Shown here one piece after another: positions 9,863-43,335 of a stretch of 64,000 nucleotides of DNA (the stretch's first letter is position 1; each line of letters opens with the position of its first letter). Position numbers and translations under genes: made by a program. Source of the stretch: Squalus acanthias (Eukaryota). Where the stretch lies: positions 148,120,001 through 148,184,000 of the forward strand of contig CM059431.1 in the NCBI GenBank assembly GCA_030390025.1, given 5' to 3'. A model generated the notes under the pieces. The model had not been told where the DNA came from. It did no database searches and was given only the letters and a program-made list of their open reading frames with translations.

Positions 9863-10762
9863 TCATTTAATGAATTTTACAATTAGATTAAAGGGTTATT
9901 TCCCCACATTCTTCAACTGCTCTCTGAACTTAGTCTGGGTCACGGCATAAATCCCAGTGTTTGTGCAGCAACTCAGCAGCTGCAGCATCAATGCTATTTC
10001 CTGTACATAAAGAGGTAGAGATACAGAATGATACTCCGAATACCACAACCGGTTCCATAGAAACATCACCATAAACATTGCCCATAACAGGATGAAATTG
10101 CCGGAGATAACAAGCAGTAAAATTATGGATTTCCTGCGGCTCTCCATCTCTGGGTCTCTGGGACTCTCCCCACTGCTGGGACCCCGGAGTCTACTGCGGG
10201 CTCTGCTGGCCACTAAAATGTGTCTGACGGTGACAGCATTGAGCAGCAGAATCACCACAAATGGGACGCCCGGGGTGAGAAGATAATGAACGAGCTCGAT
10301 TGCTCCCCAGACCCGTGAAATCATCACAGTGTATGTTACCTCACAAAACCAGGGGGTAGTTCTGAAGCTGATACCGATCCGTCAACGAAAAATACCAGGC
10401 GATGTTCTTTAAACCGCTCAGCACAGTCACTGTTCCCAGAACCACAGCCGCCGTTTCCTCGGTGCAATATTTAGTTTTCAGCTTCTGGAGACAAATGGCC
10501 ACAAATCGATCAAAGGTGAAAGTGACGGTGAACCAGACAGAACAGTCTGTGGCTGCATAAATCAGGACGGCGTGGATATTACACACGCTTTTGAATCGTA
10601 GGAATTGAAACTGTTCCCTATAAACAATCGGAATCTGCCTCAATATCAGGTCGAGGATAATAACCAGTAGATCCGCCGCTGCCATGGCCACCAGGTAGCG
10701 AGTGACACATTTGGAGAGACCGCACCTTCCCCGAGACAGGATCACAATCGTCACTAAGTTCA
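9863..10762 (-). pseudogene. Exon 2 of GPR139/GPR142-like class A GPCR, copy 1 (frameshifted; probable pseudogene)
   Basis: Acceptor tttccctttctcacAG/TG AAC at 10763-10764. Sequence NLVTIVILSRGRCGLSKCVTRYLVAMAAADLL, TFDRFVAIC, SCCTNTGIY. One extra base in the G5 run at 10352-10356 splits ORFs 10341-10763 and 9896-10327. TAA at 9896-9898 replaces the paralogue's TAT. Ancestral stop at 9863-9865. Confidence 0.85.
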
Positions 10763-12079
10763 CTGTGAGAAAGGGAAATAAACAGGGAAATTAAAAATCA
10801 GGCTGCGAGCAAGAGCAGCAGTTTGATGGAAATCGGGGAGATATATGCGAATCAATAGCGACATTAAATGATATAATCTAATTCTATTAACTGTGGAGCT
10901 GAATACAGGGTTTATTGTAAGAATAATCGGGAATAAATTGTTGAATCAATAAATGAAAAGGTGATACAAGCAACAGGAATGTAGCCAATGTTTTATCAAT
11001 GAGAGATTAAATGGTAGACCTGCCTTGAACCCAGCAGACAGAAGCTCCGCCCGAGGTACCGGGGACTCAAAGGACCAGAACCTCTCAGGAAGCCTTCGGT
11101 TCCCGGGATCAGTCAGCATTTGGAGAGTTGCAATACGCTTCAATGCCCCTTGTGTTAGGGAGGAGGAAATCCCGCTTGGACTCATGCGCCTGGTCAGAAT
11201 ATCCTTTATATTTGAGAACTGAAAATGAAAAGAACAGCAAAATACAGAAACTGCAATCTTGGCGTTCAATAATTACAGGCAATTGTATTTAAAATGTACG
11301 GCTGTAATATGCAAATGCTAAGATAATTAATACAAGTGCACTGCAGTTATAAAGATAACCGGGCTGCAAGAAATCTTTTGAAGATTGAGTTTTCTACATT
11401 TATGCTGAAATACACAAATTCTAGCTCATTGAAAGGAAGATTTTCCAAATAACATAAATAGTGGGAACAGAATTAAAATAAATAGTTATCATGGATCAAG
11501 TAATATCCGACTAAATGCATTTATAAGCATCATAATCAGGCGAATTATCCAACAGGCAATATGATGCCGAATGTATTTGAAAAGTATCTGAACACAAATG
11601 GAATAGATTTATCCTTGTACGTTTTCACCTGTTGGTTTCCAACTTGTGCAGAAAATATTAGTCGAGAAAATATGAAAGGATTTTCTTACCCTCAGTACTT
11701 CAGTTACAATCAGCTGGGATTGTTTATCCTGCAGTACAGCAGGAGGCAATAGAGAATCACTCTGGGTCTCACTGAGAGATCCACTGAACTGTGACAGACG
11801 GGCATGGGATCCAATTGTAAATTCAAAGCAAAGATTGGAAATAAACGCATTCAAATATGTCTGAGTGAACGTTTTTGAGAATTTAAATTATCCTTGTGAT
11901 CCTTTTCTAACCATCAGAAGCAGTGCCACTAATGCAGAGCTGGAGATGGTGGGAAAGAAGACATTGACTGGAACTGAATGAGTCGCGGATATTTAAGACA
12001 TTTAAAGATGTGGGTGTGATCTGCCAGGATTTGTTCCTGTGACTCTGTGTCAGTAACCATAACGAGCATTCAGTGAAAA

Positions 12080-12215
12080 CAAAAGCAAATTACTGCGAAT
12101 GTTGTAAATCTGAAATAAGCACAGAAAATGTTTTCAATACTCAGCAGGTCAGGCAGCATCTGTGGAGAGAGAGAAGGAAATAACTTTTCAGGTCGATGAC
12201 CTTTCGCCATTTGGT
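12080..12215 (-). mobile_element. Penelope-like element terminal fragment
   Basis: Similar to fragments at 31812-31940 and 44465-44665 (CTCAGCAGGTCAGGCAGCATCTGTGGAGAGA...TTCAGGTCGATGACC). Carries a decayed hammerhead core. Confidence 0.55.
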
Positions 12216-12359
12216 GAAAAGTCTCAAAACCAAGACAACATTATTCTGATCTGTTACAAATGTGCAGTGGAGAGAACAGAATGAAATTCGTTAAATAAAG
12301 AGTATCGTCCAATATCGTTTCTTGAGTTGAATATCGAACTATTGAATCTTGGTACTACT

Positions 12360-12820
12360 GTATCACCTTCAGAATCAATAGCCGAGAGCAGCGCGGATGG
12401 GATGGTGAATGACAAGGAGAGAAATACAGTAAAACATGATTTATAGAATGAATAGCTGGATACAGGCTCTTACCAGGGACACCAACAGCAGCGAAGCGCG
12501 GGGGAATCAGTGACAAGAACAGTAATACAGTGAAACATGATTTACAGAATTAATAGTTGGATACAGGGACTTACCAGGGACACCAACAGTAGCGAAGCGC
12601 GGGGGAATCAGTGAAAAGAACAGTAATACAGTGAAACATGATTTACAGAATTAATAGTTGGATATAGAGACTTACCAGGGACACCAAAGTAGTGAGGGAT
12701 GAGGGGCGGGATAATTGACAAGCCCTTTAATACAGTTAAACATGATTTACAGTATTAATAGTTGGATACAGAGACTTACAAGGTGAATCAATAGCAGCGA
12801 GAATGCGACTGACTTTTTAA
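12360..12820 (-). repeat. ~101-107-bp tandem repeat of the exon-1 end plus splice donor (copy 1 intron)
   Basis: Repeated ...GCTGTTGGTGTCCCTG|GTAAG with donor G at 12779, 12675, 12574 and 12473, plus a degenerate one at 12366. Confidence 0.85.
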
Positions 12821-12959
12821 ACAACTCTTGTTTTAACAAAGATGCAACAACTTGAAAGACAGAATACAATTAAGAACTGAATTTGCCACGGTAAACAGCA
12901 ATAATAATATTACAGTGTAACATGGTTTATAGAATTAATAACTGGACATAGATTCTTAC

Positions 12960-13071
12960 TAGGAACACCAACAGCAGCGAGGAGCGGATAGAAAATCTGT
13001 TGTATATCATTAACTATTGCCATCATCCGCTCCAGTTCAAGATAACTTTCGAAAGCGCTGCCGGAACCCAT
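12960..13071 (-). CDS. Exon 1 of GPR139-like GPCR copy 1 (MGSGSAFESYLELERMMAIVNDIQQIFYPLLAAVGVP)
   Basis: ATG at 13071. TM1 start YPLLAAVGVP. Phase-1 donor CCTA|GTAAGA at 12959 matches the phase-1 acceptor of exon 2. Homologous to exon 1 of copy 2. Confidence 0.8.
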
Positions 13072-13139
13072 GCCTTCCCTCTGTAAGAGGCTGGTGGTCT
13101 TTGTGCGGGAGGCAGCGCGCCGATTGTGTGAGGTCACAC

Positions 13140-13250
13140 AGCGAAGGGATCTCCTTATTTACAGCAGAGAAAAATCCCCGAGTGACATAATTAGGCCGAA
13201 CTGTATCTGGCATTAATTACAGTCACTGAACCAACAGACTCATTGAACCA
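13140..13250 (-). promoter_or_regulatory. Putative proximal promoter of GPCR copy 1 (TATA-like TAAATAAG, two TAATTA sites)
   Basis: Conserved with 43170-43335 (TGGCATTAATTACAGTCACTGAAC shared), while sequence further upstream is not shared. Confidence 0.55.
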
Positions 13251-13384
13251 TTGTCACCACAACACCTCACTGCAACACAATCTGAAGTAGCTGAGTTTTC
13301 ATCTTCTCTGGACAGAATTTTATACATTGCCAGAAATAGATTTCATTCCATTCGGGCTCAGTTTGAGGATCCAGTGAATAGCTG

Positions 13385-14105
13385 AGCCACACGGAGCAGG
13401 AAAGGCCCAGGCTCCATCCCCGGCCTGTGCCGAATGATTCAGATCTCACCTGGTGTGGTGCTGATCCCAACAAACACAAAGCATTGAAGGCCCAGGTTAC
13501 AACCTCGACCTATGCTGTGTTAGCCTGATCTCACACACGGTGTGATACTGAGCCCACACACACACACACACAAAGCATGGAAGGTCCAGGCTACAACGTC
13601 GGCCTGTGCTAAGTGAATCTAATCTGACACCCGGTGTGATACTGATCCCCAGACACATAGAGCAAGAAAGGCCCAGGCTCCATCCTCGGGCTGTGCTGAA
13701 TGAGCTGATCTCACACCCGGTGTGGTACTGAGCTCCTCACACACAGAGCAGGAAAGGCCCAGGCTCCATCCCCGGCCTGTGTTCAGTGACTCTAATCCCA
13801 CATCCGGTGTGGTCCTGAGCTCCACATACACAGACAGAGCAGGAAAGGAAAGGCTCCATCCCCGGACTGTGGTAACTGATACTAATCCCACACCCGGTGT
13901 GGTCCTGAGCCCCCCACACACAGACAGAGCAGGAAAGGAAAGGCTCCATCCCCGGTCAATGCTGAGTGAGCTGATCTCACACCCGGTGTGGTAACGAGCC
14001 CCACCCACAGAGCAGGAATTGCCCAGGCTCCATTCCCGGCCTGAGCTGTGTCAGCCTTATGTCATCCAGTGTGGTACTGCGCCCCTCACACACACACAGA
14101 GCAGG
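13385..14105. repeat. Minisatellite, ~80-bp unit (CACAGAGCAGGAAAGGCCCAGGCTCCATCCCCGGCCTGTGCTGAGTGAGCTGATCTCACACCCGGTGTGGTACTGAGC)
   Basis: About 8-9 diverged tandem units. The unit resembles a tRNA-SINE head region. Confidence 0.85.
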
Positions 14106-14869: not shown

Positions 14870-15150
14870 CCTCTTTACCTAAGGAGAGACAAACTTGCCT
14901 TTGAGGGAGTGCAGCGAAGGTTCACTAGATTGGTTCCTGGGATGGGGGGATTGTCCTTTGAGGAGAGATTGAGTAGACACGACCTATATTCCCTCGAATT
15001 TTGAAGAATGAGAGGAGATCTCACTGAAAATTTTCAAATTCTTACAGGGCTTGACAGAGTAGATGCTCGGAAGATCTTAGACTCAAAGATTGATAGAGCA
15101 CAGAAGGAGGCCATTCGGCCCATCGAACCTGTGCCGGCTCTTTGAAAGAG
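14870..15150 (+). mobile_element. CR1 LINE 3' fragments
   Basis: GAGGGAGTGCAGCGAAGGTTCACTAGA and GAAGAATGAGAGGAGATCTC match the other CR1 3' ends in the window. Confidence 0.7.
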
Positions 15151-16258: not shown

Positions 16259-16259
16259 A

Positions 16260-18190: not shown

Positions 18191-18191
18191 C

Positions 18192-19769: not shown

Positions 19770-22700
19770 GGCAGGGTGTGGGAGAGTGGGAGGAGCTGAG
19801 TGTGGGGAAAAAGTGGGTGGGGCTGGCGGGGGAGAGTAGGGGGGCGGGGAGAGTGGGAGGGGCTTGATGGGGATATACTGGGAGGGGCTGGCTGGGGTTT
19901 GAGTGGAAGTTGCTGGGTGGTGTTACGTGGGAGGGTCTGGGTGGGGGAGAGTGGGATAGTTGGGTCGGGAGATTGGGAGGGTTTGGGTAGGGTTAGACTG
20001 CGGGGGGCAGGGTGGGATGAGAGTGGGATAGGCTAGTGGGGGAGAGTGTGATGGGCTGGGAGGGTTAGATTGGGAGGGGCTGTGTGGGGAAGAGTGGGAG
20101 GGTTTGTGTGGGGTGGGAGTGGGAGGGCCTGGTTGGGGAAGATTGGGTGGGACTGTGTGGGGAAGAGTGGGAGCGGCTGGGTGGGGAAGCATGGGAGAGG
20201 ATGGCTGGGGTTGCGTGGAAGGGGTTTTTGGGGCAGAATTGGGAGGGGCTCAGTGGAGTTAGATTGGGATGTTTTGTGTGGGGATGGAGTGGGTGGGGCT
20301 GGGTGGGGGGGAATGGGAGGGGCTGGGTGGGGAAGAGTGGGAGGGGCTGTTTGGGGAAGAGTGGGAGGGGCTGTTTGTGGGGAGAGTGGGAGGGACTGGG
20401 TGGGGAAGAGTGGGAGGGGCTGGGTGTGGTGAGAGTGGGTAGGGCTGGGCGGGGTTGAAGTGCGAGGGGCTGGGTGGCGGAGATTGTGAGGGGTTGCCTA
20501 GTGTTAGAATGGGAGGGCCTATGAGAGGGCAAGAGGGAGGGGCTAGTTGGGGGAGAGTGGTAGGGGCTGGCTGGGGGAACAATGGGAGGGATTGTGTGTG
20601 AGGAGAGTGGGAGGGGCTTGTTGGGGAAAGATTTGGAGGGGCTGGTTGAAAGGAGAGTGGGAGGATTTTTGTGGGGGAGAGTGGGTGGGGCTGGGTATGT
20701 TTAGAATGGGAGGGCCTGGGTGGTGTTAGAGTGGTATAGAATAAGTGGGGGAGAGTGGGAGGTGCTGGGTGGGGGAGAGTGGGATGGGATGGGTGGAGTA
20801 GAATGTGAGGGGCTGTGTGGGGTTGTGTGAGAGGGGCTGGGTGGGGTAGAGTGTGAGGGGCTGGGTGCAGGGAGAGTACGAAGGGCTGGGTGGGGTAGAG
20901 TGTGAGGGGCTGCGTGTGGGGAGAGTACGAGGGGCTGCGTGTGGGGAGGGTACGAGTGGCTGTGTGGGTTTGAGTGGGAGGGGCTGGGTCTGGTTATAGT
21001 AGCAGGGGCTGGGTGGGATTAGAGTGGGAGGGGCAGCGTGTGGTTAGAGAGGGAGGTGCTGGGTGGTCTGAGAGTGGGAGGGCCTGGTTGGCGTTAGAGT
21101 GGGAGGGGCTGCGTGTGTATGGAGTGTTGGGTTCTGTGTGGGTTTGGTGTGAGAGTGGCTTTTTGGTGTTGTAGTGGGTGGGGGTTGGGTGAGGTTGGAG
21201 TTTGAGTGGCTGCGTGGGAAAATTGGGGGCGCTGGGTTGGGTAGAGTGGTAGGGACTGGGTGAGGTAGGAGTGCATGGGGCTGTGTGGGGTTGGAGTGGG
21301 TGAGTATGTGTGGGGTTAGAGTAGAAAGGGCTGGGTGATTTTGGAGTGGGAGAGATAGGTTGAGAAAGAGTGGGAGGGGCTGGGTGGGGTTAGATTGGCA
21401 GGGTCTGTGTGGGGTTGGAGCGGGAGGGGCTGGGTGGGGTTAGGGTGACAGGGGCTGGGTGTTGGAGAGTGGGTAGGACAGGATGTGTGAGGCTGGGAGG
21501 GGTTGGTTGGTGTTGCATTTGGCCGGGCTGGGTATAGTAAAAGTGGCAGGGGCTGGGTGGGGCAGAGTGGGTGCGGCTGGGTGGTGTTAGAGTGGCAGTT
21601 GCTGTGTGGTGGATAGTGGGTGGGTCAGGATGGGGGTTGGAGTGGGAGTGGCTGGTTTGGATTAGACTGGTAGAAGCTGGGTGTGGTAGAGTGGGAGTGA
21701 CTGGGTGGGGGAGAGTGGGAGGTGCTGGGTGGGGTTAGATTGGGAGGGGCTGATGTGTTTTAAAGTGGAAGGGGCTTTGTGGGGGAGAGTGGGAGCGGTT
21801 GGGTGAGGGAGAATTATAGGGGCTCAGTGGGGGAGAGTGGAAGGCGCTGGTTGGGGGAAGAGTAGGAGGAGCTGGGTGTGAGGAGAGTAGGAGGAGCTGG
21901 GTGGTGTTGGAGAAGGAGGGACAGAGTGGAGGAGACTGAAAGGGGCTGAGGGAGAGTGGAAGGGGTTAAATGGGGTTGGAGTGGGAGGGGCTGGGTTGTG
22001 TTAGATTGAATGGGTTTGGTACGGAGGAGTGGGAGGGGAGGTGCGAGTAGAGTGGGTTGGGTGGTGTTGGAATGGGTAGGGCTGGGCGGGGTTGAAGTGC
22101 GAGGGGCTGGGTGGCGGAGATTGTGAGGGGTTGCCTAGTGTTAGAATGGGAGGGCCTATGAGAGGGCAAGAGGGAGGGGCTAGTTGGGGGAGAGTGGTAG
22201 GGGCTGGCTGGGGGAACAATGGGAGGGGTTGTGTTTGAGGAGAGTGGGAGGGGCTTGTTGGGGAAAGATTTGGAGGGGCTGGGTGAAAGGAGAGTGGGAG
22301 GATTTTTGTGGGGGAGAGTGGGAGTGGCTGGGAGGGGCTGTGTGGGATTGGCTGGGTGGGTTTAGAGTGGCAGGGGCTGTATGGGGGAGAGTGGGAGTGA
22401 TTGGATGGGGCAGAGTGGAAGGGCAAGGGTGTGGGAGAGTGGGAGTTGCCAGTGGGGGAGAGTGGGAGGGTCTAGCTGGGCGAAGAGTGGGTGGGCTGGT
22501 TGGACTTATAGTGGAAGGTGCTGGGCGGGGGAGTGTGGGAGAGGCTGGGTGAGGGAGAGTGGCAGGGGTTGCATGGTGTTAAAGTGGGAGTGGCTGTGAG
22601 GGGGATGCGAGGGAGGGGAAGGGCAGGGTTAGAGTGGGAGTGGCTGGGTGGGGAAGAGTGGGAGGGGCTAGCTTGGGGAAGAGCGGGTGTGGGTGGGTGG

Positions 22701-22955
22701 GGTTGGTGTGGGATGGGCTGTTTGGGTTTTTAGTTGGTGGTGCTGGGCGGTGAAGTGTGGAAAATGCTGGGTGAAGGAGAGTGGCAGGGGATGGCTAGGA
22801 GCTGGTGAGTGTGGAGGGCAGGGTGGGGGAGAGTGGGCGGGGCAGGTTGGGAGGAGAGTGCGAGGATTTAGATAGGGAGAGTGGGAGGGGCAGGGTGAGG
22901 GAGAGTGGGAGGGGCAGGGTGAGGGACTGGGATGGGGCTAGAATGGGAGGGGCTG
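19770..22955 (+). repeat. G-rich degenerate satellite (GGGGAGAGTGGGAGGGGCTGGGT-like units)
   Basis: About 3.2 kb of G-tracts on the + strand. Internal duplication ~20440-20700 matches ~22075-22330. Confidence 0.9.
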
Positions 22956-29379: not shown

Positions 29380-29640
29380 GAGAGCCGCCATCTTTGTGCG
29401 GGAGGCCGTAGCCGTCATTTCTGTGCGGGGCGCCGTAGCCGCCATATTTGTGTGGGGCGGCAGGGCCGCCATCTTTGTGCGGGGCGCGGGTGTCACCATC
29501 TTTGTGCTGGGGCAGGAGAGCGTGGCGGGTGCCAGTGCTTCGCTCATTGAGAGGTGCCGCCATCTTTGACTAGGTCATGGCGCGGGCGGGGGTTGCGCTG
29601 CTTCAGGCGGCGCGTTAGGGGCGGCCATCTTTGTCTAGGG
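29380..29640. promoter_or_regulatory. GC-rich array of YY1-type motifs (~27-bp spacing) downstream of GPCR copy 2
   Basis: GCCGCCATCTTTG variants at ~29385, 29410, 29438, 29465, 29492, 29556 and 29622. Confidence 0.45.
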
Positions 29641-29803
29641 CACTGGTGCCTTTCCAGAGGGGCCTGACAGATGGCCGCGCCACTCACAGGGAGCCCAGTG
29701 GAGACAGTGTGTGAGTGAGCGTGTTAATGTCCCCAGATCACTGGCGGCTCACTCAAAATATCAGGCCCAGGGAACTCTCAGGCTGCAAAGTCTCCGCTTC
29801 TTC

Positions 29804-30702
29804 TCATCCTTTAATGAATTTTACAATCAGAGTAAATGGATATTTCCCCATATTCTTCAACTGCTCTCTGAACTTAGTCTGGGTCAGGGCATAAATCCCA
29901 GTGTTTGTGCAGCAACTCAGCAGCTGCAGCATCATTCCCATTTCCTGTACATAAAGAGGTATTTCTAGCTTAGACCCGAAAGACAACATCCGGTTCGTTA
30001 TATAACACACCATAAACACAGCCCATAACAGGATGAAATTGCCGGAGATAACAAGCAGTAAAATGATGGATTTCCTGCGGCTCTCCATCTCTGGGTCTCT
30101 GGGACTCTCCCCACTGCTGGGACCCCGGAGTCTCCTGCGGGCTCTGCTGGCCACTAAAATGTGTCTGACGGTGACAGCATTGAGCAGCAGAATCACAACA
30201 AATGGGAGCCCCGGCGTGAGAATATAATGAAGGAACTCGATTGCTCCCCAGAACTGTGACAACCAAACTTGCATTGTTACATCACAAAACCAAGGTTGGT
30301 TCCGAAGCTTATACCGATCTGTGAACATAAAATACCAGAAGATGTTCTTTGAACCGCTCAGCACAGTCACTGTGCCCAGAACCACAGCCGCCGTTTTCTC
30401 GGTGCAATATTTAGTTTTCAGCTTCTGGCAACAAATGGCCACAAATCGATCAAAGGTGAAAGTGACGGTGAACCAGACAGAACAGTCTGTGGCTGCATAA
30501 AGCAGGACTGCGTGGATATTACACACGGGGATGGATTTGACGAAATAAAACGGTCTCCAATAAACAATCGGAATCTGCCTCAATATCAGGTCGAGGATAA
30601 CGACCAGTAGATCCGCCGCTGCCATGGCCACCAGGTAGCGAGTGACACATTTGGAGAGACCGCACTTTACCCGAGACAGGATCACAAGCGTCACTAAGTT
30701 CA
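29804..30702 (-). CDS. Exon 2 of intact GPR139/GPR142-like class A GPCR, copy 2
   Basis: Acceptor tttcccttgctcacAG at 30703-30704. Open frame to TGA at 29804. TM1-TM7 with LVAMAAADLL, TFDRFVAIC, ECL2 Cys (PWFC) and SCCTNTGIY. Confidence 0.92.
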
Positions 30703-31676
30703 CTGTGAGCAAGGGAAATAAACAGGGAAATTATACATCAGGCTGGGATGGGAGCAAGAACAGCAGTTTGATGGAAAACGAGGTGAAATCTTAGAATCAA
30801 TAGCGAGATTCATTGATATAATCTAATTATATTACCTGTGGAGCTGAATAGAGGGTTTATTGTAAGAATAATCGGGAATACATGGTTGAATCAATAAATG
30901 AAACGGGGATAAATACATCATGAAATTAACAGATGTTTGATCAATGAGATATTAAATGATAGATCTGCCGATAGCCCAGCAGACAAAAGCTCCGCCCGAG
31001 GTACCAGGGACACGAAGGACCAGAACCTCTCAGGAAGCCTTCGTGTCCTGGGATCAGTCAGCATTTGGAGCGGAGCAATTCGCTTCTATGCCCCTTATGT
31101 GAGGGAAGCGAAATCCCGCTTGGATTCCTGCTGCTGGTGAGAATATCCATTATATTTAGGACTGAAAATGAATGCAACTGCATAATACAGATACTGCAAT
31201 CTTGGCGTGCAATAATTACAGGCAATTGTATTAAAAATGTACGGATGTAATATGCAAATGCTAAGATAATAAATACAAGTGCACTGCAGTTATAAAGATA
31301 ACGGGGCTGTAAGAAGTGTTTTGAAGATTGTGCTTTCTACAGTATTGTTGAAATATACAAATTCTAGCTCATTGAAAGGAAGATTTTCCAAATAACATTG
31401 CAAAGAATGGACACTAATTAAATTAAATAGTTATCATTGGCCAGATCATATCCTACTAATTACATTTATTAGCATCATACTAACGCGACTTATCCAACAG
31501 GCAAAGAGCTGCCGAATGTTTTTGTAAAGTATCTGAACAAAAATGGAAGAGATTTATCCTGGTACTTATTAACCTGTTGGTTTCCAACTTGTGCAGATAA
31601 TATTAGCAGAGAAAATATGAAAGGATTTTCTTAAGCTCAGTACTTCAGTTACAATCAGCTAGGATTGTTTATCCAG

Positions 31677-32030
31677 GAACTCCCAGGGCCACCAATATTA
31701 CACTGCTCCCGCCTCAGTCCAGGAATCTAATTCTCTGGGCCACCAATATTACACTGCTCCCGCCTCAGTCCAGGAATGTCATTCTCTGGGCAACCTAGAT
31801 TACACTGCTGCGATAGCAAAATACTGCGGATGCTGGAAATCCGAAATAACAACAGAAAACGCTGGAAAAACTCAGCAGGCCAGGCAACATCCGTGGAGAG
31901 AGAAAGAGAGTTAACGTTTCAGGTCGAAACCCTTCGTCGGATTACACTGCTCCCGCCTCAGTCCAGGAATGTCATTCTCTGGGCCACCTAGATTACACTG
32001 CTCCCGCCTTAGTCCAGCAAGTTGATTCCC
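31677..32030. repeat. ~43-46-bp tandem repeat (TTACACTGCTCCCGCCTCAGTCCAGGAAT...) interrupted by a Penelope terminal fragment (31812-31940)
   Basis: Direct repeats; the insert matches 44465-44560. Confidence 0.75.
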
Positions 32031-32249
32031 AGGGCGTTGTGATTGCCTGAATTCGAAAAAATCATCAAATTAATTCTAATGATTGACATCAAAAAAGCCA
32101 ATCTTGTAATGGTTCTTTACAGAGGTGGAGAAAATAATAAAACGAGCAAAGGTTTGACACCAATGAATCAAAGGAACATGCTTAAATTGTTAACCAATGA
32201 GGTAAATACCCTGTAACCGTCTCCATACTCCATGAAACGCTCTGGAAAC

Positions 32250-32900
32250 ATTGAATTCTCGCACAGTCATATTCACAGAACCATACCTATCAGTCAACAT
32301 TCCCGACTCCTCCTTTACCTTCCCAAGGTATATCCTGTTCCACCGGCAGGGCAGACTCACCAGAGGCGGTGGCACAGGGGTATGCAATCGGCTGGGAGAG
32401 ATCCTGCGAGTCCTCAACATTGCCCAAGGACATAATGAAGTCTCACGGCTTCCAGTCAGACATGGGCAAGGTCACTTCCTGATGATTACCGCCTACCGCC
32501 CTCATTCAGCTGATGAATCAGCACATCTTCATGCTGAACACCAGTTGATGGGAGCACCGAGAGCAGAAAGGGCACAACATATAACGCTCTGGGTGGGGAG
32601 GGGGAGACTTCAATGTCCATCACCAAGAGTGACTCAGGATGCACCATCATTAACTGAGCCCTGAAGAACAGAGCTGCCAGTCTGGGATTGCGGCAGGTGG
32701 TGGGAGAACCAACACGGAAAAATATCCTGCATGACCTCGTCTTCACCAATCTACCTATCGCATATATATCTGTCCATGACGATATTAGTAGGACTGACCA
32801 CCGCAAAATATTTGTTCAGAATAAGTCTCGCCTTCACACTGAGGACACCATCCATCGTATCATGTGCCACTACCATCGTGCTCAGTGGGATGAAATTAGA
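32250..32900 (+). mobile_element. LINE APE-endonuclease fragment (probably family B)
   Basis: IFTEPYLS...RGGGTGV, VGEPTRKNILHDLVFTNL, SRTDH. Confidence 0.75.
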
Positions 32901-33054
32901 CAGATTCAAGCGATCCCACAACCATCAGATCAGATTATTTCAATGCTGTCATTTCCTTTCGTGAAGGTAGTGAACAATTAAGCCGTTTCCCCATAGTCTT
33001 TAAAATGTCTCCTTTTCAAGTATTTATCGAATTACCTTTTGAAAGTTTCTATTA

Positions 33055-33450
33055 AGAAAGAAAGACTTGCATTTATAGAGCGCCTTTCACCACCTTGGGA
33101 TGTCCCAAAGCACTTTACAGCCAAATAAATACTTTTGAAGTGCTGTCCGTGTTATACTTTAGGAAACACGGCAGCCAGTTTGTGCCCAGCAAGTTCCCAC
33201 AAACAACATTGCAATAACGACCAGTTGATCTATTTCAGTAATAATAATTGAGATAAATATTGGCCGGAACACTGGGGAAAACTCCGCTGCTCTTCTTCGA
33301 ATGGTGCCATGGGATCTTTTACATCCACCTGAGAGAGAGCAGACTCGGCCTCGGTTTAACGTCGCATCCGAAAGACAGCCCCTCCAACAATACAGTGCTC
33401 CCTCAATACTGTCCCTCCGACAGTGCAGTGCTCCCTCAGCACTGGCAGAT
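33055..33450 (-). mobile_element. DeuSINE-like SINE
   Basis: Tail AAGAAAGAAAGACTTGCATTTATAGAGCGCC and central CCTCGGTTTAACGTCGCATCCGAAAGAC...CAGTGCAGTGCTCCCTCAG. Family assignment is from recalled consensus. Confidence 0.6.
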
Positions 33451-33454
33451 GGCT

Positions 33455-34935
33455 CGCATCCCAGGTTGCTATGGGAATTTGGGGAGGAGATTGCGGAAGG
33501 GCTTGCCACAATTTTCCAATCTTCCCTAGATGCGGGGAGCTTCCTCAGGATTTGAAAGTGGCAAATTTGACAGCATGTTCAAGAAAGGGTGTAAGGACAA
33601 TCCTAGTAACTACAGGCCGGTCAGTTTAACATCAGTGGTGGGTAAACTTTTAGTAACAATAATCAGGGAAAAAAGTAACGGGCACATGGAGAGGTTTAAG
33701 CTAATTAAGGAGAGCCAACACGGATTTGTAAAAGGCAGATCGTGTTTGACTGATCTAATTTAATTTTTTGATGAAGTAACAGAGAGGATTGATGAAGGGA
33801 ATGCAATGGATATTGTTTACATGGATTTTCGGAAGGCGTTTGACAAAGTACAACATAGAAGGCTGGTTAACAAAATTGAGGCTCATGCAATAGGTGTGTC
33901 AGTGGCAGCTTGGATAAGGAATTGGCTTAAGGACAGGAAACAGTGAGTTGCGGTAAATGGCTGTTTTCAGACTGGAGGATGGTAGACAGTGGTGTTCCCC
34001 AAGGGTCAGTGCTGGGGCCAAGCTTTTTAGATATATATATATAAATAAATGAGCTGGATATTGGAATACGGAGAAGAATTTCTAAATTTGCCGATGACGC
34101 CAAACTTGGGGGTGTGGCAAACAGTGAAGATGATACCAATCGACTGCAACAGGACATAGAAAGGCTAGCAGAATGGGCAGATAAGTGGCAGATGGAATTT
34201 AATACAGAGAAGTGTGAGGTGATGCATTTTGACAGAAGAGACAGGGAGAGGCAATATACACTTAATGAAACAGTTTTAAAGAGTGGGCAGGGACAGAGGG
34301 ACCTGGGAGTTAATGTGCATAGGTCCCTGAAGGTGGCAGGACATATTGAGAGAGTGGTTAGCAAAGCATTTGGGATCTTGGGCTTCATAAATAGAGGTAT
34401 TGAGAACAAAAGTAGAGAAGTTATGCTGAACCTTTATAAAGTGCTGGTTAGGCCACAACTGGAGTATTGTGTCCAGTTCTGGTCACCTCACCTTACGCAG
34501 GATGTGAAGACCCTTGAGAGGGTGCGGAGGAGCTGTGCAAGAATGGTTCCGGGGATGGGGTATCTTAGCTACAAGGACAGGTTGGAGAAGCTGGATTTGT
34601 TTTCATTGGAGCAAAGGATGTTGAGGGGTGATTTGATAGAGGTGTACAAGATTATGACGGGTTTGGATAGGCGAGACGGGGAAAGGCTGTTGTTCCCACT
34701 AGTTGATTGTACAAGGACTAGAGGACACAGATTTAAGGTTTTGCGCAAGAGATATGGAGGATGGGAGGAAAAACGTTTTTATGCAGCGAGTGGTGAGGAC
34801 CTGGAACTCGCTGCGGACAGAAGTGGTGGAAGCGGAGACACTCAATGTTTTCAAGGGGAGACTGGATAGGCACTTGAGGGAAATAAACTTGCAAGGGCTA
34901 CGGAGATAGATTGGGGCTACAGGAGAGCGAGCCTG
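33455..34935 (+). mobile_element. CR1 LINE RT and 3' region (second subfamily); its tail resumes at ~38460-38548
   Basis: [41 protein letters not shown]. Confidence 0.88.
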
Positions 34936-34939
34936 GCAC

Positions 34940-37900
34940 AGCGAAAACCGATCTGGGAGGGTAAGAAATAGAAAGATTCAAAGCGTGACCTCATAGGAAA
35001 GCAGGGAAGCGATTGGCTGGTCAGTTTTTCTCTATTTTTCTTGGACATTGGTTTAAATTAAGAGCCGGGATTAAAAGCTAAACGTTCAAAATTTACGCAT
35101 TTAATTAATTAAATACATTAGAGATGGCAGGGCAGGCGATGTGTTACTGCTGCAACATATAGGAGCTGGTGGACACCATTGAGGTGCACGGCGACCACAT
35201 TTGCAGTAAGTGTTGGTTGCTCGAGGAACTTCGGCTCCGTGTTGATGAGCTGGAGTCCGAGCTTCAGATACTGCGAAACATCAGGGAGGGGGAGAGTTAC
35301 CTGGATGCTGTGTTCTAGGAGGCAGTCACACCCCTTAGATTAATTAATTCAAGTTTGTTCCGTGGTCAAGGACAGGTGGGTGTGACTGCGAGCGAGGCAG
35401 GTATGGGGAAACAGGGGGTAGTGCTGGAGGAGCCTCAGCCCTTGCTCTTGGCCAACAATTACGTGGTTCTTACTCTCTGTGTGTGGGTGAGAGCAGGAAC
35501 TGCAGTGAGGATGAGCAAACTGAACACAGCACCGTGGTACAGGTAACCATTCAAGTGGGGGGAACAAAAAGACATGTGTTAGTGGTAGGGGACAGTATAG
35601 TTAGAGGGATAGACACTGTTCTCTGCAGCCAAGAGCGTGAGTCCTGAAGGTTGTGTTGCCTGTCCGGTGCCAGGGTAAAGGACATCTCCTCTGGGTTGGG
35701 GAGGAACTTAAAGTGGGAGGGGAAAGATCCTGTTGTCGTGGTCCATGTCTGTACCGAAGACATAGGTAGGACAAAGGAAGAGGTTCTGCTTAGGGAGTAT
35801 GAGCAGCTAAGGACTAATTTAAAAGCAGAACCACAAAGGGAATAATCTCTGGATTACTACCTGAGCCACGTGCAAATTGGCATAGGGTGAATAAGATCAG
35901 AGAGATGAACGAGTGGCTCATCGATTGGTGTGGGAGAAATGAGTTTCGATTCTTGGGGCACTGGCAGCAGTACTGGGGTAAGAGGGAGCTGTTCCGTCAG
36001 GACGAAAACCATTTCTCCCACACCAATCTTCCAGCCACTCGAAGAGTTCTTAGAATGTATGCGGGCTGGTTTCTTGGAACAATACGCTGTGGAACCAACA
36101 AGTCCGCAGACTATTTTAGATCTGGTTATGTGCAACGAGGCTGGATTAATTAATGATCTCGAAGTGAAAGATCCTCTCGGGAAGAGTGATGATAGCATGG
36201 TAAAATTTCAAATTCAGTTTGAGGGTGAGAAAGCTAGGTCTCAAACTAGTGCCCTGAAATTAAATAAAGGTAATTACAAAGGTATGAAGGCAGACTTGGT
36301 TAATGTGGACAGGGACAATATATGATAAGACTGTAGAAAAGCAGTGGCAAAGGAGATATTTCATAACTCTGAGCAAAGATATATTCCAGTGAGAAGGAAA
36401 GCCTCTAAGAGAAGGATGAAACATCCGTGGCTAACTAAGGAAGTAAAGGATGGTATCAAATTGAAAACAAAGGCTTACAATGTTGTGAAGAATCGTGGTA
36501 GGCCAGAGGATTGGGAAATTTTAAAAACCAGCAAAGACAACTAAAACAATGATAGAGAGCGAGAAGGTAGCTTATGAGAGTAAGATGCAAGAAATATAAA
36601 AACAGACAGTAAGAGCTTCTACAGGTATATAAAAAGGAATAGAGTAGCTAAAGTAATCGCTGGTCCCCTAGAGGATTCGACTGGCGAATTAATAATTGGA
36701 AACAATGAAATGGCGGAGACATTTTAACAAATATTTTGTTTCGGTCTTCAAGGTAGAAGACACTAAAAGATTCCCAATAATGGATAATCAAGGGGCTATT
36801 CGGGGGTGGGGGGGGGGGGGACGTAAAATAATCACTATCACTAGCGAAAAAGTACTAGGCAAACTAATGGGATTAAAGGTGGACAAGTCCCCTGGACCCG
36901 ATGGCCTGCATCCTAGGGTCTTTAAAGAGGTGGCTGCAGAGACAGTGGATCCATTGGTTGTAATCTACCAAAATTCCCTGGATTCTGGAGAGGTCCCAGC
37001 GGACTGGAAAACCTCAAATCTAACACCCCTATATAAGAAAGGAGGGAGACAGAAAGTAAACATCTATAGACCAGTTAGCCTAATATCTATCATTGGGAAA
37101 ATGCTGGAGTCCATCATTAAGGAAGTGCTAGCAGGACATTTAGAAAATCACAATATAATCAAGCAGAGTCAGCATGGTTTTATGAAAGGGAAATCATGTT
37201 TGACAAATTTGCTGGAGTTCTTTGAGGATGTAACGAGCAGGGTGGATAAAGGGGAACCAGCAGATGTCGTGTATTTGGATTTCCAAAAGGCATTCGATAA
37301 GTTGCCACGTAAAAGGTTACTGCACAAGAAAAGAGCTCACGGGGTTGGGGGTAATATATTAGATTGGATAGAGAATTGGCTAACTAACAGAAACCAGAGA
37401 GTCGGGATAAATGGGTCAGTTTCAGTTTGGCAAACTGTAACTAGTGGGGTGCCGACGGGATCAGTGCAGGGGCTTCAACTATTTGCAATCTATATTAATG
37501 ACTTGTAACCAAATTTGCTGATGATACAAAGATAGGTGGGAAAGCAAATTGTGTGGAGGACACAAAGAATCTCCAAAGGGATATAAATAGGCTAAGTGAG
37601 TGAGCAAAAATTTGGCATATGGAGTATAATGTGGGAAAATGCGAGGTTATCCACTTTGGTAGGAAAAATAAAAAAGCAAATTATTATTTAAATGGGGAGA
37701 GATTACAAAATGCTGAGGTACAGAGGGATCTGGGGGTCCTTGTACATGAATCACAAAAAGTTAGCATGCAGGTACAGCAAATATTTAGGAAGGCAAATGG
37801 AGTGTTGGCCTTTATTGCAAAGGGAATGGAATATACAAGTAGGGAATTCCCGTTACAACTCTACAGGGCATTGGTGAGACCACACCTGGGGTGCTCCGTG

Positions 37901-38456
37901 CACTTTTGGTCTCCTTATTTAAGGAAGGATATAGTTGCATTGTAGGCTGTCCAGAGAAGGTTCATGAGGTTGATTCCGGAGATGAAGGGGTTGTCTTATG
38001 TAGAAAGGTTGAGCAGGTTGGGTCTATACTCATTGGAGTTTAGAAGAATGAGAGGGGATCTTATTGAAACATACAAGATTCTGAAGGGGCTTGACAGGGT
38101 AGATGCAAAGAGGATGTTTCCCCTCGTGGGGGAATCTAGAACTAGGGGGCATAATTTCAGAATAAGGGGTCGCCCATTTAAAACGGTAATGAGGAAGAAT
38201 TTCTTCTCTCAGATGTTCGTGAATTTTTTGGAATTCTCTTCCCCAGAGAGCTGTGGAGGCTGAGTCATTCAATATATTTAAGGTGGAGATAGACAGATTT
38301 TTGAACAATAAGGGAGTCAAGGGTTATGGGGAGCGGGCAGTGAAGTGGTGTTGAGGCCAAGATCAGATCAGCCATGATCGTATTGAATGGCGGAGCAGGC
38401 TCGAGGGGCCAAATGAACTACTCCTGCTCCTACATCTTACGTCTTATGTTCTTATG
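34940..38456 (+). mobile_element. Near full-length degenerate CR1 LINE (5' UTR, ORF1 zinc finger/coiled coil/esterase, ORF2, tail)
   Basis: ORF1 from ATG ~35124 (C..C..H/C, LEELRLRVDELESEL, VVGDSIVRG). ORF2 EN/RT fragments with a deletion near 36010. TCTTATGTTCTTATG tail. Confidence 0.92.
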
Positions 38457-38554
38457 AGCGGGACGGACTGGATTTCTCTACAGAGAGCTGGCAAGTACTC
38501 GATGGGACGAATGGACGCCTTTCTGTGCTGTATGACTCCATGAATCTATACCCC

Positions 38555-39925
38555 TCGAACAGTGCAGCGCTCCCTCAGTACTGCCCCTCTGACAATAAAG
38601 AGCTCCCTCAGAACTGCCCCTCCGACAGTGCAGCGCTCCCTCAGTACTGCCCCTCCGAAAGAGAAGCGCTCTCTCAGTACTGCCCTTCCGACAGTGCAGC
38701 GCTCCCTCAGTACTGAACCTCCGACAGTGCAGCGCTCCCTCAGTACTGAACCTCCGACAGTGCAGCACTCCCTCAGTACTGCCCCTCTGACAGTGCAGTG
38801 CTCCCTCAGTACTGCCCCTCCGACAGTGCAGTGCTCCATCACTACTGACTCTCCGACAGTGCTGCACTCCGTCAGTACTGCCCCTTTGACAGTGCAGTGC
38901 TCCCTCTGTACTGCCCCTCCGACAGTGCAGTGCTCCCTAACTACTGACTCTCCGACAGTGCAGTGCTCCCTTAGAACTGCCACTCAGAAAGTGCAGTGCT
39001 CCCTCACTACTGACTCTCCGACAGTGCAGTGCTCCCTCAGAACTGCCACTCAGACAGTGCAGCGCTCCCTCAGTACTGCCCCTCCGACAGTGCAGCGCTA
39101 CCTCAGTACTGAACCTCCGACAGTGCAGCGCTCCCTCAGTACTTCCCCTCCGACAGTGCAGCGCTACCTCAGTACTGAACCTCCGACAGTGCAGCGCTCT
39201 CTCAGTACTGAACCTCCGACAGTGCAGCGCTCCCTCAGTACTGCCCCTCTGACAGTGCAGTGCTCCCTCAGTACTGCCCCTCCGACAGTGCAGTGCTCCC
39301 TCACTACTGACTCTCCGACAGTGCTGCACTCCGTCAGTACTGCCCCTTTGACAGTGCAGTGCTCCCTCTGTACTGCCCCTCCGACAGTGCAGTGCTCCCT
39401 CACTACTGACTCTCCGACAGTGCAGTGCTCCCTTAGAACTGCCACTCAGAAAGTGCAGTGCTCCCTCACTACTGACTCTCCGACAGTGCAGTGCTCCCTC
39501 AGAACTGCCACTCAGACAGTGCAGCGCTCCCTCAGTACTGTCCCCTCCGACAGTGCAGCGCTACCTCAGTACTGAACCTCCGACAGTGCAGCGCTCCCTC
39601 AGTACTTCCCCTCCGACAGTGCAGCGCTACCTCAGTACTGAACCTCCGACAGTGCAGCGCTCTCTCAGTACTGACCCTCCGACAGTGCAGCGCTCCCTCA
39701 GCACTGCCCCTCCGACAGTGCAGCGCTCCCTCAGCACTGCCCCTCCGACAGTGCAGCGCTCCCTCAGTACTGCCCCTCCGACAGTGCAGCGCTCCCTCAG
39801 CACTGCCCCTCCGACAGTGCAGCGCTCCCTCAGTACTACACTTGAGTCTGAGCCTAGATTTTTGTACTCACGTCGCTGGAGTAGGAGTTGAACCCAGAAC
39901 CTTCTGACTCAGAGGCAAGTGTGCC
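38555..39925 (-). repeat. 33-bp minisatellite (CCGACAGTGCAGCGCTCCCTCAGTACTGCCCCT) expanded inside a DeuSINE-like SINE
   Basis: About 39 units; unit matches 33390-33445. tRNA-like head with B-box (GGTTCAACTCC on minus) at ~39840-39925. Confidence 0.85.
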
Positions 39926-40444
39926 GATTGAATCTGCTTCCACTAGCCTTTCAGAGAGTTCTTTCCAGATCATCTCCCTGCGTGATCAAAGTTCGTCCTT
40001 TTGGTAATGACAAGTCAGCCAGTGGAATCAGTTTCTCCTTAGTTACTGTATCAAATCCCTCAACATTTTGAACACTTCTACTCAATCTCCACCTAACCTT
40101 CTCTGCTCTAAAGAGAACAATCCCAACTTCTCCAGACTCTCCACATAACTGAAATCCCTTACCCCTGGTGTCATTCTGGTAAATTCTCTCCACACAAGCG
40201 GCAGACGAGGACCACCTCCAACAAGAGATAGTCTAATCTCGACAGTCATTGGCATTTCAATCACCGAATCCTCCACCATCAAAATCCTAGGTGTCGCCTA
40301 TTGATCAGAAAATCAACTGGACCTGCCACATCAATGACATGGCTACTACAGCATGTAACTCACCTCCTGACTCCCCAAAGCAGCACCAACACCTACAAGG
40401 CACAAGTCAAGAGTGTTATGGATTACTACCTGTAGATACCGAGT

Positions 40445-40740
40445 ACATTAGCATAGCGGTTATGTTACTGGACAAGTAATCCAAGAAGCCTGGACCATTA
40501 ATCCGTTAGACCCGAGTTCATGTACCCACCTCGACAGCTGGAGAATTAAAATTCAGTTACTTAAATACATTTGGAATTAAAAAGCTAGTGTCAGTAATGG
40601 TGACCCTGAAACTACCGGATTGTTGGAAAAACCCAACTGGTTCACTAATGTCCTTGAAGGAAGGAAACCTGCCATCCTTACCTGGGCTGCCCATATGTGG
40701 TTGACTCTTAACTGCCCTCTGAAATGGCCGAGCATTTGTA
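40445..40740 (+). mobile_element. tRNA-derived SINE (same family as 3148-3556)
   Basis: TAGCATAGCGGTTATGTTACTGGACAAGTAATCC...GAGTTCA...CAGTAATGGTGACC. Confidence 0.65.
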
Positions 40741-40887
40741 TCAAAAGTATGAATCTGAGAACGAACATTAATGGTCTAATAATCTGTAAGGACAGATATG
40801 GGCGCTAAGAATTTCCGATCACAAACTGTCTGTTTTGTGTCGTCGCCCGACAGGAATTTCTTGGCATTTTTACTTTCACCGTGTTTT

Positions 40888-41450
40888 CTCTATAAAAAGC
40901 CTGTGTGACTGGTCCTGTCTCTATAAAAAGCCTGTGTGACCGGTCCTGTCTCTTTAAAAAGCCTGTGTGACTGGTCCTGTCTCTTTAAAAAGCCTGTGTG
41001 ACTGGTCCTGTCTCTTTAAAAAGCCTGTGTGACTGGTTCTGTCCCTTTAAACAGCCTGTGCGACTGGTTCTGTCTCTTTCAGAAGCCTGTGACACTGGTC
41101 ATGTCTCTTTAAAAAGCCTGTGTGACAGGACCTGTCTCTTTAAAAAGCCTTTGTAACTGGTCCTATCTCTTAAAAATCCTGTTTGACTGGTCCTGACTCA
41201 TTAAAATGTAATTGTGACTTTTCTTATCTCTTTAAAAAGCCTGTGTGACCGGTCCTGTCTCTTTAGAAAGCCTGTGCGTCTGGTCCTGTCTCATTAAAAA
41301 GCCTGTGTGACTGGTCCTGTCTCTTTAGAAAGCCTGTGTGACTGGTCCTGTCTCTTTAGAAAGCCTGTGTGACTGGTCCTGTCTCTTTACAAAGTCTGTG
41401 TGACTGGTCCTGTCTCTTTAAAAAGCCTGTGTGGCTGGTGTCGTCTCTTT
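40888..41450. repeat. 31-bp minisatellite (TCTCTTTAAAAAGCCTGTGTGACTGGTCCTG)
   Basis: About 18 tandem units. Confidence 0.92.
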
Positions 41451-41699
41451 AATAGGGCTTTGGCTAAAGAGTAGGACTAATTATATAGCTCTTTCAAAGA
41501 GACGGCACAGACACGTTGGGTCGAATGGCCTCCTTCTGTGCTGTACCATTCGATGATTCTATGAGCAAGAAACAGAGAGAGAGAGAGAGATAAAGGAAAA
41601 TAAAGACACAAAGACTGGGAGAGGTACAGAGGGAAAGAAATTAACTTTAAAAGGGGAATTGGATAAATACTTGAAGGGTAACAATTTGCAGGACTATGG

Positions 41700-42545
41700 G
41701 GCTAATTGGAGGGGTGAGGCCATGGTGGGATTTGAACACAAGAAGGAGAATATTAAAATCGTGGTGTAGCCGGAACAGGAGCCAATGTAGGCCAGTGATC
41801 ACAGGGGTGATGGATGAATGGGACTTGGCGAGTGTTAGAATATGGACAGAAGAGTATTGGAGGCTTGTAACTGGGAGGTCGACCAGGAGAGCATTGGAAT
41901 AGTTGAATTTAACAAAGGCACAGATGAGGGTTTATAGAAACATAGAAACATAGAAGATAGGAGAAGGAGTAGGACATTCAGCCCCTCGAGCCTGCTCCGC
42001 CATTCAATGAGATCATGGCTGATCATCCAAATTCAGTACCCTGTCCCTGCTTTCTCCCCATATCCCTTGATCCCTTTAGCCTTAAGAAATATATCTAACT
42101 CCTTCTTGAATATATTTAATGAATTGGCTTCTACTGCCTTCTGTGGTAGAGAATTCCACAGGTTCACCACTCTCTAGGTGAAGAAATACTTCCTCATCTC
42201 ATTCCTAAATGGCTTACCCCTTATCCTTAGACTGTGACCCCTGGTTCTGGACTCCCTGGCCATCAGGAACATCCTTCCTGCATCTAGTCTGTCTAGTTCT
42301 GTGCAGTGCAGTGGAAGGGCTGAGGCGGGGCGGAGACGGGCAATATTATGGAGGTGGTGGTAGGCAGGACTGGTGATTCGGAGGATCTGAGGTCGGAACT
42401 CAGCTCAGGGTCAAAGAGAACGCCGTGGTTGCGAACAGTCTGGTTCAGCCTCAGACATTGGCCAGGTAGGGGGACGGAGTCAGTAGAGAGAGAACGGAGT
42501 CTATGACAGGGATCGAACACAATGGATTTGGTTTTCCCAGATTGA
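41700..42545 (-). mobile_element. L2-like LINE fragments with an inserted CR1 3' end (41933-42293)
   Basis: LRLNQTVRNHGVLFDPELS is L2-type RT C-terminus; (TAGAAACA)n CR1 tail at 41935. Confidence 0.65.
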
Positions 42546-42559
42546 AATGGCAAAAACAG

Positions 42560-42794
42560 TAATACAGCTCCAATTGCTGGATATCGAGACTTACCAGGGA
42601 CACCAACAGCAGCAAAGAGGAGAGAGTAACTTACGAGAATAGTAATACAGTAAAACACGGTTTGCAGAGTTAATAGTTGGACACAGAGACTTACCAGGAA
42701 GAACAACCGCAGCAAGGAGGGGAGAGCAAAAGACATGAACAGTAATACAGTAAAAAATGATTTACAGAATTAACAGCTGGTTAGAGAGACTTAC
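42560..42794 (-). repeat. 100-bp tandem repeat of the exon-1 end plus splice donor (copy 2 intron)
   Basis: GTAAGTCTC donors at 42794 (true), 42694 and 42594, each preceded by exon-like LLAA(I/V)GVP-derived sequence. Confidence 0.85.
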
Positions 42795-43059
42795 AAGGAA
42801 CACCAATAGCAGCAAGGAGGGGATAGTAAAAGTATTCAGTAATCACAAGTGCGTAATATATTCGAAATCTTAATGGTAGTCTATCATAATTTGCAGAAAG
42901 ATAGTCAAACACCCAAATGAAACTCCGGCCCATTGTTTTAACATTCCAATCTAATGATCTCAGATTCTGATCCATTGTTGTAATATTCCAATCTACTGTG
43001 CTCAGATTCTGATCCATTGTTGTAACATTCCAATCTACTGTGCTCAGATTCTGATCCAT
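42795..43059 (-). CDS. Exon 1 of GPR139-like GPCR copy 2 (N-terminal 14-aa repeats plus start of TM1)
   Basis: First ATG at 43059: MDQNLSTVDWNVTT repeats...YFYYPLLAAIGVP. Phase-1 donor CCTT|GTAAGT joins the exon 2 acceptor, giving about 387 aa. Confidence 0.8.
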
Positions 43060-43169
43060 TGTTGTAACATTCCAATCTACTGTTCTCAGATTCCGACTCC
43101 CTCTCTGTAGAGCAGCGTACTGATCCCTGTTACGGCCGGAGGTGATGCTCTCACTAACACTATGAGATA

Positions 43170-43335
43170 ACACATTGAAAGGATTCCCTTATTAATAGAA
43201 GAGGGAAACCCTGCACTGATACAATAAGGGCCCATGGAGACTGGTATTAATTACAGTCACTGAACAAACAGCTTCAGCTAACCCGTGGAGACTGGCATTA
43301 ATTACAGTCACTGAACAAACAGCCTCAGTTAACCC
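43170..43335 (-). promoter_or_regulatory. Putative proximal promoter of GPCR copy 2 with a 51-bp duplicated TAATTA module
   Basis: TATTAATAAG (minus, 43188-43197). CCC(A/G)TGGAGACTGG(T/C)ATTAATTACAGTCACTGAACAAACAG occurs twice. Homologous to 13140-13250. Confidence 0.55.

Follow-up and report, generated by a model that had tools for sequence, protein, structure and literature searches.

A large, diversifying family of class A G-protein-coupled receptors from the shark Squalus acanthias

Two receptor genes and the family to which they belong

We analysed a 64,000-nucleotide stretch of the Squalus acanthias genome (assembly GCA_030390025.1, contig CM059431.1, positions 148,120,001 to 148,184,000 of the forward strand), hereafter the window, which contains two two-exon genes for class A G-protein-coupled receptors (GPCRs), one of them intact (copy 2) and one broken (copy 1). 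Both belong to a family that evolves by birth and death and counts about 2,500 class A GPCR loci, a large diversifying repertoire derived from an ancestor not previously known for such use in vertebrates.

Comparison of the window with itself revealed a duplicated block of 2.2 kb (9521–11729 and 29467–31674, 87% identity), each copy of which carries, on the minus strand, the large exon 2 of a class A GPCR gene (Table 1). Exon 2 of copy 2 matched the Pfam profile 7tm_1 (E 4e-18), the sole match at E ≤ 0.1, and no OR, V1R, TAAR, T2R or V2R profile was matched. The AlphaFold model of copy 2 (predicted local distance difference test score 91) consists of seven helices and a hairpin in the second extracellular loop (ECL2). 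The seven-helix fold and the 7tm_1 match above the cut-off place the receptor in class A. Its first exon encodes 14-residue repeats (42-bp unit, 42930–43093) and four N-glycosylation sequons, followed by the first half of transmembrane helix 1 (TM1). We infer that this exon, near 43 kb, pairs with exon 2 of copy 2 over 12.1 kb, based on exon order, on a like arrangement on contig C1736 and on RefSeq models of other sharks that carry the same N-terminal repeat (Heptranchias, P0009, and Heterodontus, P0025).

Copy 1 is broken, as an earlier note on this DNA had claimed, by an extra base in ECL2 and by a premature TAA that lies 11 codons ahead of the usual stop, near the end of helix 8. An assembly error behind the frameshift is unlikely, since the extra base extends no homopolymer when compared with five intact paralogues, and since the premature stop and changes in the promoter accompany it. 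All loop sequences quoted in the earlier note were found on the minus strand, including ECL2 of copy 1, which, however, was read there across the frameshift. The N-termini, described as unrelated, do differ in sequence (37 residues without sequons in copy 1 versus 88 residues with four sequons in copy 2), but the two genes are recognizably homologous at the start of TM1 and in the promoter. A tandem repeat of ~100 bp opens both introns (12410–12783 and 42586–42832); it repeats the end of exon 1 together with the GT donor and supplies two to three spare donor-like sites per gene.

Table 1. Features of the window
Feature	Position	Strand	Description
Copy 2 core promoter (predicted)	43190..43335	-	Forkhead-like TGTTTGTT at 43270, homeodomain-like TAATTAAT, TATA-like box at ~43198
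Copy 2 exon 1, coding part	42795..43059	-	88 codons and one base; GT donor at 42794
Copy 2 intron	30703..42794	-	12.1 kb, phase 1, inside TM1; LINE-like fragments and minisatellites
Copy 2 exon 2, intact	29804..30702	-	298 codons, mid-TM1 to stop; has a DRF motif and the cysteines of TM3 and ECL2
Copy 1 core promoter (predicted)	13157..13236	-	Forkhead-like site and TATA box with a single change each
Copy 1 exon 1, coding part	12960..13071	-	37 codons and one base; GT donor at 12959
Copy 1 exon 2, pseudogene	9863..10762	-	One extra base at ~10358 (ECL2); TAA at 9898-9896
Divergent family member, C-terminal end	1..40	+	Identity to copy 2 of 47%; its start lies 859 bases to the left of the window
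Duplicate of copy 1 3′ flank (2617-9737)	57424..64000		Runs on to window-relative 64568; no receptor exon

The shark's own genome (3.71 Gb) was searched for further members. A protein search with copy 2 gave 4,638 candidates, of which 132 were scored, all of them 81–100% identical to the query. An exact 23-base motif from TM3 had 1,078 genome matches and a degenerate 29-base motif 2,536, with none for the reversed-pattern control of either, and 38 of 39 sampled matches to the degenerate motif were family members. Since this motif recovers only 69 of the 80 loci found with the exact one, a total of ~2,900 loci is plausible. Tandem duplication of the family was seen on at least ten chromosome-scale contigs. 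The expansion proposed in the earlier note is thus borne out by thousands of loci genome-wide, rather than a few copies.

Exon 2 was open at 31 of 80 loci in a first sample and at 26 of 38 in a second (57 of 118 together, the other 61 being broken); the sampled loci were the first-listed places on chromosome-scale contigs and are not a random draw. One locus (L099) that passed the test for intactness aligns over 214 residues only and was counted as broken. Roughly 1,000–1,700 open frames are estimated before haplotig collapse, a figure that leans high because haplotigs exist (a locus on C1736 is 99.7% identical to one on C7), because two of 31 open exons lack a canonical acceptor and because exon 1 was checked at few loci. 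Contig C1736 is probably a rearranged alternate haplotype of C7:148.1–148.3 Mb that differs in copy number (two copy-2-type genes, one broken); its blocks are 91–99% identical to those of C7, and the counterpart of copy 2 differs at 10 residues, seven of them in the outer half.

Among public proteins, 2,538 of 3,824 candidates passed E 1e-3. All of the 120 matches listed are shark models named 'probable G-protein coupled receptor 139', and chimaera, skate, stingray, electric ray, catsharks and bamboo sharks have more distant members.

Both first exons have just upstream of them a shared block of ~80 bp that contains TGTTTGTT, TAATTAAT and a TATA box ~70–75 bases after the first site; the first two we take to be forkhead-like and homeodomain-like sites, respectively. 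In copy 2 the upstream element is doubled in tandem (51 bp), with the second site at 43321. A 19-base piece of the promoter has 398 genome matches (control 0), of which those listed on large contigs fall for the most part on receptor clusters. Among 21 upstream stretches drawn from diverse subfamilies, 11 contained an exon 1 that could be located, and in the other 10 it was not found. The block was present at 10 of the 11 loci with a located exon 1, 208–387 bases before the donor region, and it spans subfamilies that are 47–74% identical to copy 2, including members at only 47–56%. The rule describing the promoter, which was fitted after the sequences were seen, found no match on the opposite strand of 211 kb and none in shuffled sequences. 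The forkhead-like site is altered in one of nine copy-1-type promoters, that of the pseudogene copy 1. Since it is shared across divergent subfamilies, the promoter points to common regulation of the family, presumably in one cell type. One intact receptor deviates (L159, upstream of L054, C3:86.30 Mb): its conserved promoter is replaced by LINE (long interspersed nuclear element)-like sequence right before exon 1.

A third copy had been predicted at the right edge of the window. The duplicated flank found there (7167–9737, repeated at 62027–64568) ends ~130 bp before the coding sequence, so no third copy lies directly to the right; the closest other members are an inverted, intact copy at window-relative 86983–87879, 23 kb beyond the window, and the divergent one that ends at position 40. 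Two long, G-rich satellite arrays with 25-bp units (19846–22926 and 49428–53521) are located in opposite orientations, 6–7 kb upstream of the promoters of copy 1 and copy 2.

Diversifying selection on the extracellular side

As the earlier note had stated, the two paralogues are alike inside and diverge on the ligand-facing side. Of the 111 codons of the extracellular half, 44 specify another amino acid and four differ silently; for the 185 codons of the inner half, the numbers are 12 and nine. The 92 intact members of the family have 84 distinct ECL2 sequences.

For the analysis of selection we used 33 intact, non-redundant members whose identity to copy 2 is at least 79%; of 41 core sequences, eight were left out because their identity exceeded 98.5%. 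We applied MG94-type codon models (own code) with branch lengths fixed from a nucleotide tree and naive empirical Bayes identification of sites; regions were set from predicted helices and not from variability. Model M2a was favoured over M1a with twice the log-likelihood difference (2dlnL) equal to 489 and 7.8% of sites at a dN/dS ratio (omega) of 6.3. All 18 sites with a probability above 0.95 lie in the outer 115 codons (11 in loops, seven in helix tops) and none in the inner 186. By region, omega was 1.95 in ECL1–3 (2dlnL 24.6 versus a value of 1), 1.04 in the outer parts of the helices, 0.30 in their inner parts and 0.36 in intracellular segments, or 0.33 for the inner half overall; the core and loop values each differ from 1. 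A tree-free Nei–Gojobori comparison of 528 pairs gave pN above pS in 79% of them for the loops and in 3% for the inner half. The result remained significant in three segments with their own trees (2dlnL of 67, 248 and 95), a multi-hit model that admits multi-base changes left 319, and no recombination signal was detected in the 33-sequence set by a PHI-like (pairwise homoplasy index) test (p 0.55).

In a second set of 38 more divergent members (nine of 47 were set aside, seven of them being analysed with the C1 array described below), 2dlnL was 52.7 and omega 2.1, and 10 of 11 selected sites fell in the outer half, including TM3 positions 3.29 and 3.32 (numbering inferred from motif anchors). 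We conclude that strong positive selection acts on the ligand-facing surface of the family, with diversification of ECL1–3 and of the tops of TM3–TM7, and that purifying selection acts on the half that faces the G protein.

Three results run counter to selection as the sole cause. Silent divergence is higher in the loops than in the inner half (rate 1.13 versus 0.71; pS 0.197 versus 0.092), the average omega of the loops in the divergent 38-member set is 0.66, i.e., below 1, and in the young array on C1 the four-gamete test fails for 23 of 113 near and 186 of 416 far pairs, a sign of mosaic shuffling. Since loop silent divergence is raised and the C1 array is shuffled, gene conversion also acts, partly as a shuffler of variable cassettes. 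It cannot, however, explain a dN that is about ninefold higher in loops than in the core when dS is 1.6-fold higher; loop dN/dS above 1 thus goes beyond what conversion accounts for, in line with the earlier proposal. The M2a result for eight genes of the C1 array is unreliable because of recombination. That array (L184–L193, C1:98.9–99.7 Mb) comprises ~20 copies on one strand, in which variants of TM3 and of ECL2 are mixed in their combinations and the cysteine of ECL2 is replaced, which suggests cassette shuffling and loss of the disulphide.

The activation motifs are conserved throughout the 92 intact members: D2.50, a DRY-like motif, N7.49 and Y7.53 are present in all 92 and W6.48 in 85, with the D and R of DRF invariant (92 of 92). 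P7.50 is mostly replaced by T, and P6.50 is absent. Since the core signalling motifs are invariant and ECL2 is highly varied, the family is very probably a functional repertoire for many different ligands.

Relationships of the family

A sequence search of PDB placed GPR139 among the best but weak matches (E 3.9e-6), second after the muscarinic M4 receptor, with TAAR1 marginal (E 3e-4). In a fold search GPR139 ranked 20th, and all matches were generic class A receptors. The true GPR139 gene of the genome (L176, C18:26.73 Mb), the sole genome match of a motif derived from a GPR139 alignment, is only 26–27% identical to copy 2. That identity and a separate branch in the tree speak against the family consisting of GPR139 orthologues. 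In a quick maximum-likelihood tree of 59 rows, the chondrichthyan family was recovered with a support of 82 (SH-aLRT, the Shimodaira–Hasegawa-like approximate likelihood-ratio test); its sister was a salamander receptor (91), followed by GPR210-like genes (98), and GPR139 was placed outside, with a long-branch warning. The label 'GPR139-like' used in the earlier note is therefore only a loose one: the family falls outside GPR139 proper.

With a coelacanth relative as query, a 62%-identical gene was found on C17 (L177) and a more distant one on C9 (L178). GPR210A and GPR210B are described as orphan receptors that stand beside GPR139 and GPR142 in coelacanth, gar and teleosts (Rinne et al. 2019, PMC6504862). 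L177 (C17:37.41 Mb) and L178 (C9:120.53 Mb) probably correspond to these orphans; the two genes are conserved and carry the GPR210-like clade into cartilaginous fishes. The family, GPR139 and both GPR210-like genes have a phase-1 intron at a common position in TM1. GPR142, like GPR139 a class A orphan receptor that L-Trp and L-Phe activate, was not located in the genome, and membership in the broad GPR139/142/210 clade follows from the intron and from the closest vertebrate relatives. Taken together, the low identity to GPR139, the position in the tree and the common intron argue that a fourth, unnamed lineage within the GPR139 clade has exploded in chondrichthyans and that the family is not a set of extra GPR139 copies.

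The nearest relatives of this lineage look different. The amphibian and sturgeon receptor (RefSeq 'probable GPR139'; Pleurodeles XP_069092602.1, P0249) is sister to the shark family, has TM3 and TM6 motifs in common with it and is its probable orthologue. Unlike the shark family, it forms one cluster per species listed, at 66–74% identity (19 other amphibian rows and one sturgeon row), with no sign of expansion. The GPR210-like clade (coelacanth, teleost and frog-type receptors P0245, P0255 and P0269, with L177 and L178) is the next branch out, at 25–36% identity; its genes are conserved, low in copy number and kept by this shark, and the expanded family is a lineage separate from them. Within the family, a small cluster at C12:90.8 Mb (L180, L181) keeps the ancestral Arg at 6.51 and a short ECL2 and is a candidate for the least-derived function.

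Possible functions of the repertoire

OR, V1R and TAAR receptors are encoded by short class A genes that are clustered and subject to turnover, and the two-exon genes described here resemble them. The family is likewise large, clustered and shaped by birth and death, and residues that face the ligand are under diversifying selection. The olfactory organs of sharks are large, yet only ~65 chemoreceptor genes are known, as reported for a catshark (PMC6368271, PMC10116579). Because of the architecture and of this mismatch, we prefer chemosensation: by analogy, the family may work as a repertoire for external peptides or amino-acid-like molecules, a proposition that we regard as evenly balanced. 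All members would be switched on in one cell type by the promoter that they share, and a given cell would likely make one receptor or a few, as is the case for other sensory repertoires. The extracellular vestibule, which holds the selected residues, would be the site of ligand binding, and a common G protein would be engaged by the conserved inner half. In its full form the proposal is somewhat more tentative: a further vertebrate chemoreceptor family in cartilaginous fishes, independently recruited from a GPR139/GPR210-related orphan, which with more than 1,000 intact genes here under one shared 80-bp promoter would be the main repertoire, about twentyfold the known OR, TAAR, V1R and V2R genes combined. 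How sharks smell would be directly testable with one probe to the invariant TM3 stretch.

GPR139, the nearest relative that has been characterised, is reported to be activated by Trp and Phe through a pocket made of F3x33, H5x43, W6x48 and N7x38 (PMC5430874). Counterparts in the 92 intact members are Y or F at 3x33 in 71, H at 5x43 in 57, W at 6x48 in 85 and N at 7x38 in only four. The frequent matches at the first three positions count in favour of chemosensation. Several points weigh against it. Most members have lost N7x38 and the basic residue that the outgroups have at 6.51, so that the ligand class of GPR139 is not transferable to the family. No joint of exon 1 to exon 2 was found in sequencing runs X1, X5, X10 and X11 over 9750–13300, none of which is recorded as RNA, so that the result is uninformative either way; in X1 and X5 the intron is covered throughout, as in DNA, and in X10 and X11 exon 2 is covered and the unique intron is not, with pieces extending 16 bases into the intron. 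The pattern of selection and turnover is equally typical of immune receptor families, and an omega of ~6 is above the values usual for odorant receptors. Finally, a catshark list of the top 50 olfactory genes holds no GPCR (PMC11979771), a weak argument, since the V2Rs are missing from that list too.

An innate-immune or barrier repertoire is a serious rival, although in our judgement rather unlikely. The receptors would act in leukocytes, mast-like cells or gill and skin epithelium and recognize peptides of microbes or parasites, much as formyl-peptide receptors or MRGPRs do, in a repertoire of far greater size. The very strong selection at single sites (omega ~6) fits immune recognition equally well, as do fast turnover, the cassette-like shuffling in the C1 array and the structural difference between C7 and its probable alternate haplotype C1736, where the copy 2 counterparts are 10 residues apart (seven in the outer half). 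In addition, many promoters of the copy-1/copy-2 subfamily contain, just before the TATA box, a GGG..TTTCC run that we take to be kappaB-like. However, this run is degenerate and is missing in several divergent subfamilies in which the forkhead-like and homeodomain-like sites are kept, other known immune GPCR families count tens and not thousands of genes, and the fold search revealed no special likeness to chemokine or formyl-peptide receptors.

Recognition in reproduction or social behaviour appears improbable. Sexual selection or conflict could have diversified receptors for gamete or pheromone peptides in sperm, oviducal gland or clasper epithelium; such a role is in keeping with the positive selection at ligand-facing sites and with lineage-specific arrays, and the wider GPR139 clade is reported to include sex-peptide/MIP and FMRFamide receptors (PMC12208981), but there is no gonad-specific pointer. 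A repertoire of this size would, moreover, have no known precedent in gamete recognition. Largely non-adaptive amplification through repeat-rich segmental duplication, with conversion holding the core alike and loops drifting, is very improbable and largely refuted: it could draw on the 61 broken copies of 118, on a core silent rate below that of loops and of adjacent intron divergence (0.092 versus 0.154) and on the recombination visible in one array, but core and loop omega values of 0.33 and 1.95, the ninefold contrast in dN against 1.6-fold in dS, the lack of a recombination signal in the 33-sequence set (p 0.55), the persistence of the family in chimaera, skates, rays and sharks and its conserved promoter all speak against it.

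The genes are already present in RefSeq under an automatic label, and the expansion is seemingly undescribed. A white-shark genome study by Marra et al. in 2019 may reportedly count several 'GPR139' copies. No paper linking GPR139-like genes to a shark expansion was found in literature searches, several of which were poorly aimed and whose coverage excluded subscription papers. The family is unmentioned in the parts consulted of PMC11979771, in the main text and 24 supplements of PMC8455134 and in the main text of bioRxiv 10.1101/2025.06.08.657570, although the catshark supplement or bioRxiv table S4 may list it. A relative paucity of GPCRs in cartilaginous fishes is stated in PMC8455134; more than 1,000 intact, positively selected receptors overturn the shark GPCR count, whatever their function. 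If that function is immune, the innate GPCR repertoire would be far larger than those known from vertebrates.

Returning to chemosensation as the preferred reading, the family can be compared with other systems. With GPR139, from which the RefSeq label comes, it has in common the phase-1 intron in TM1 and often the aromatic 3x33, H5x43 and W6x48; unlike GPR139, it has the TM3–ECL2 cysteine pair, lacks N7x38, P6.50 and mostly R6.51, and comprises thousands of loci versus one motif match. OR, V1R/ORA, TAAR, T2R and FPR receptors (with MRGPR as an immune and sensory analogue) likewise come from compact class A genes that lie in clusters and undergo birth-and-death turnover, with pseudogenes among them; their extracellular half is variable, and they share short promoters. 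What sets the shark family apart from these known chemoreceptor families is a coding intron, a TATA box, a different ancestry and a sequence that belongs to none of them.

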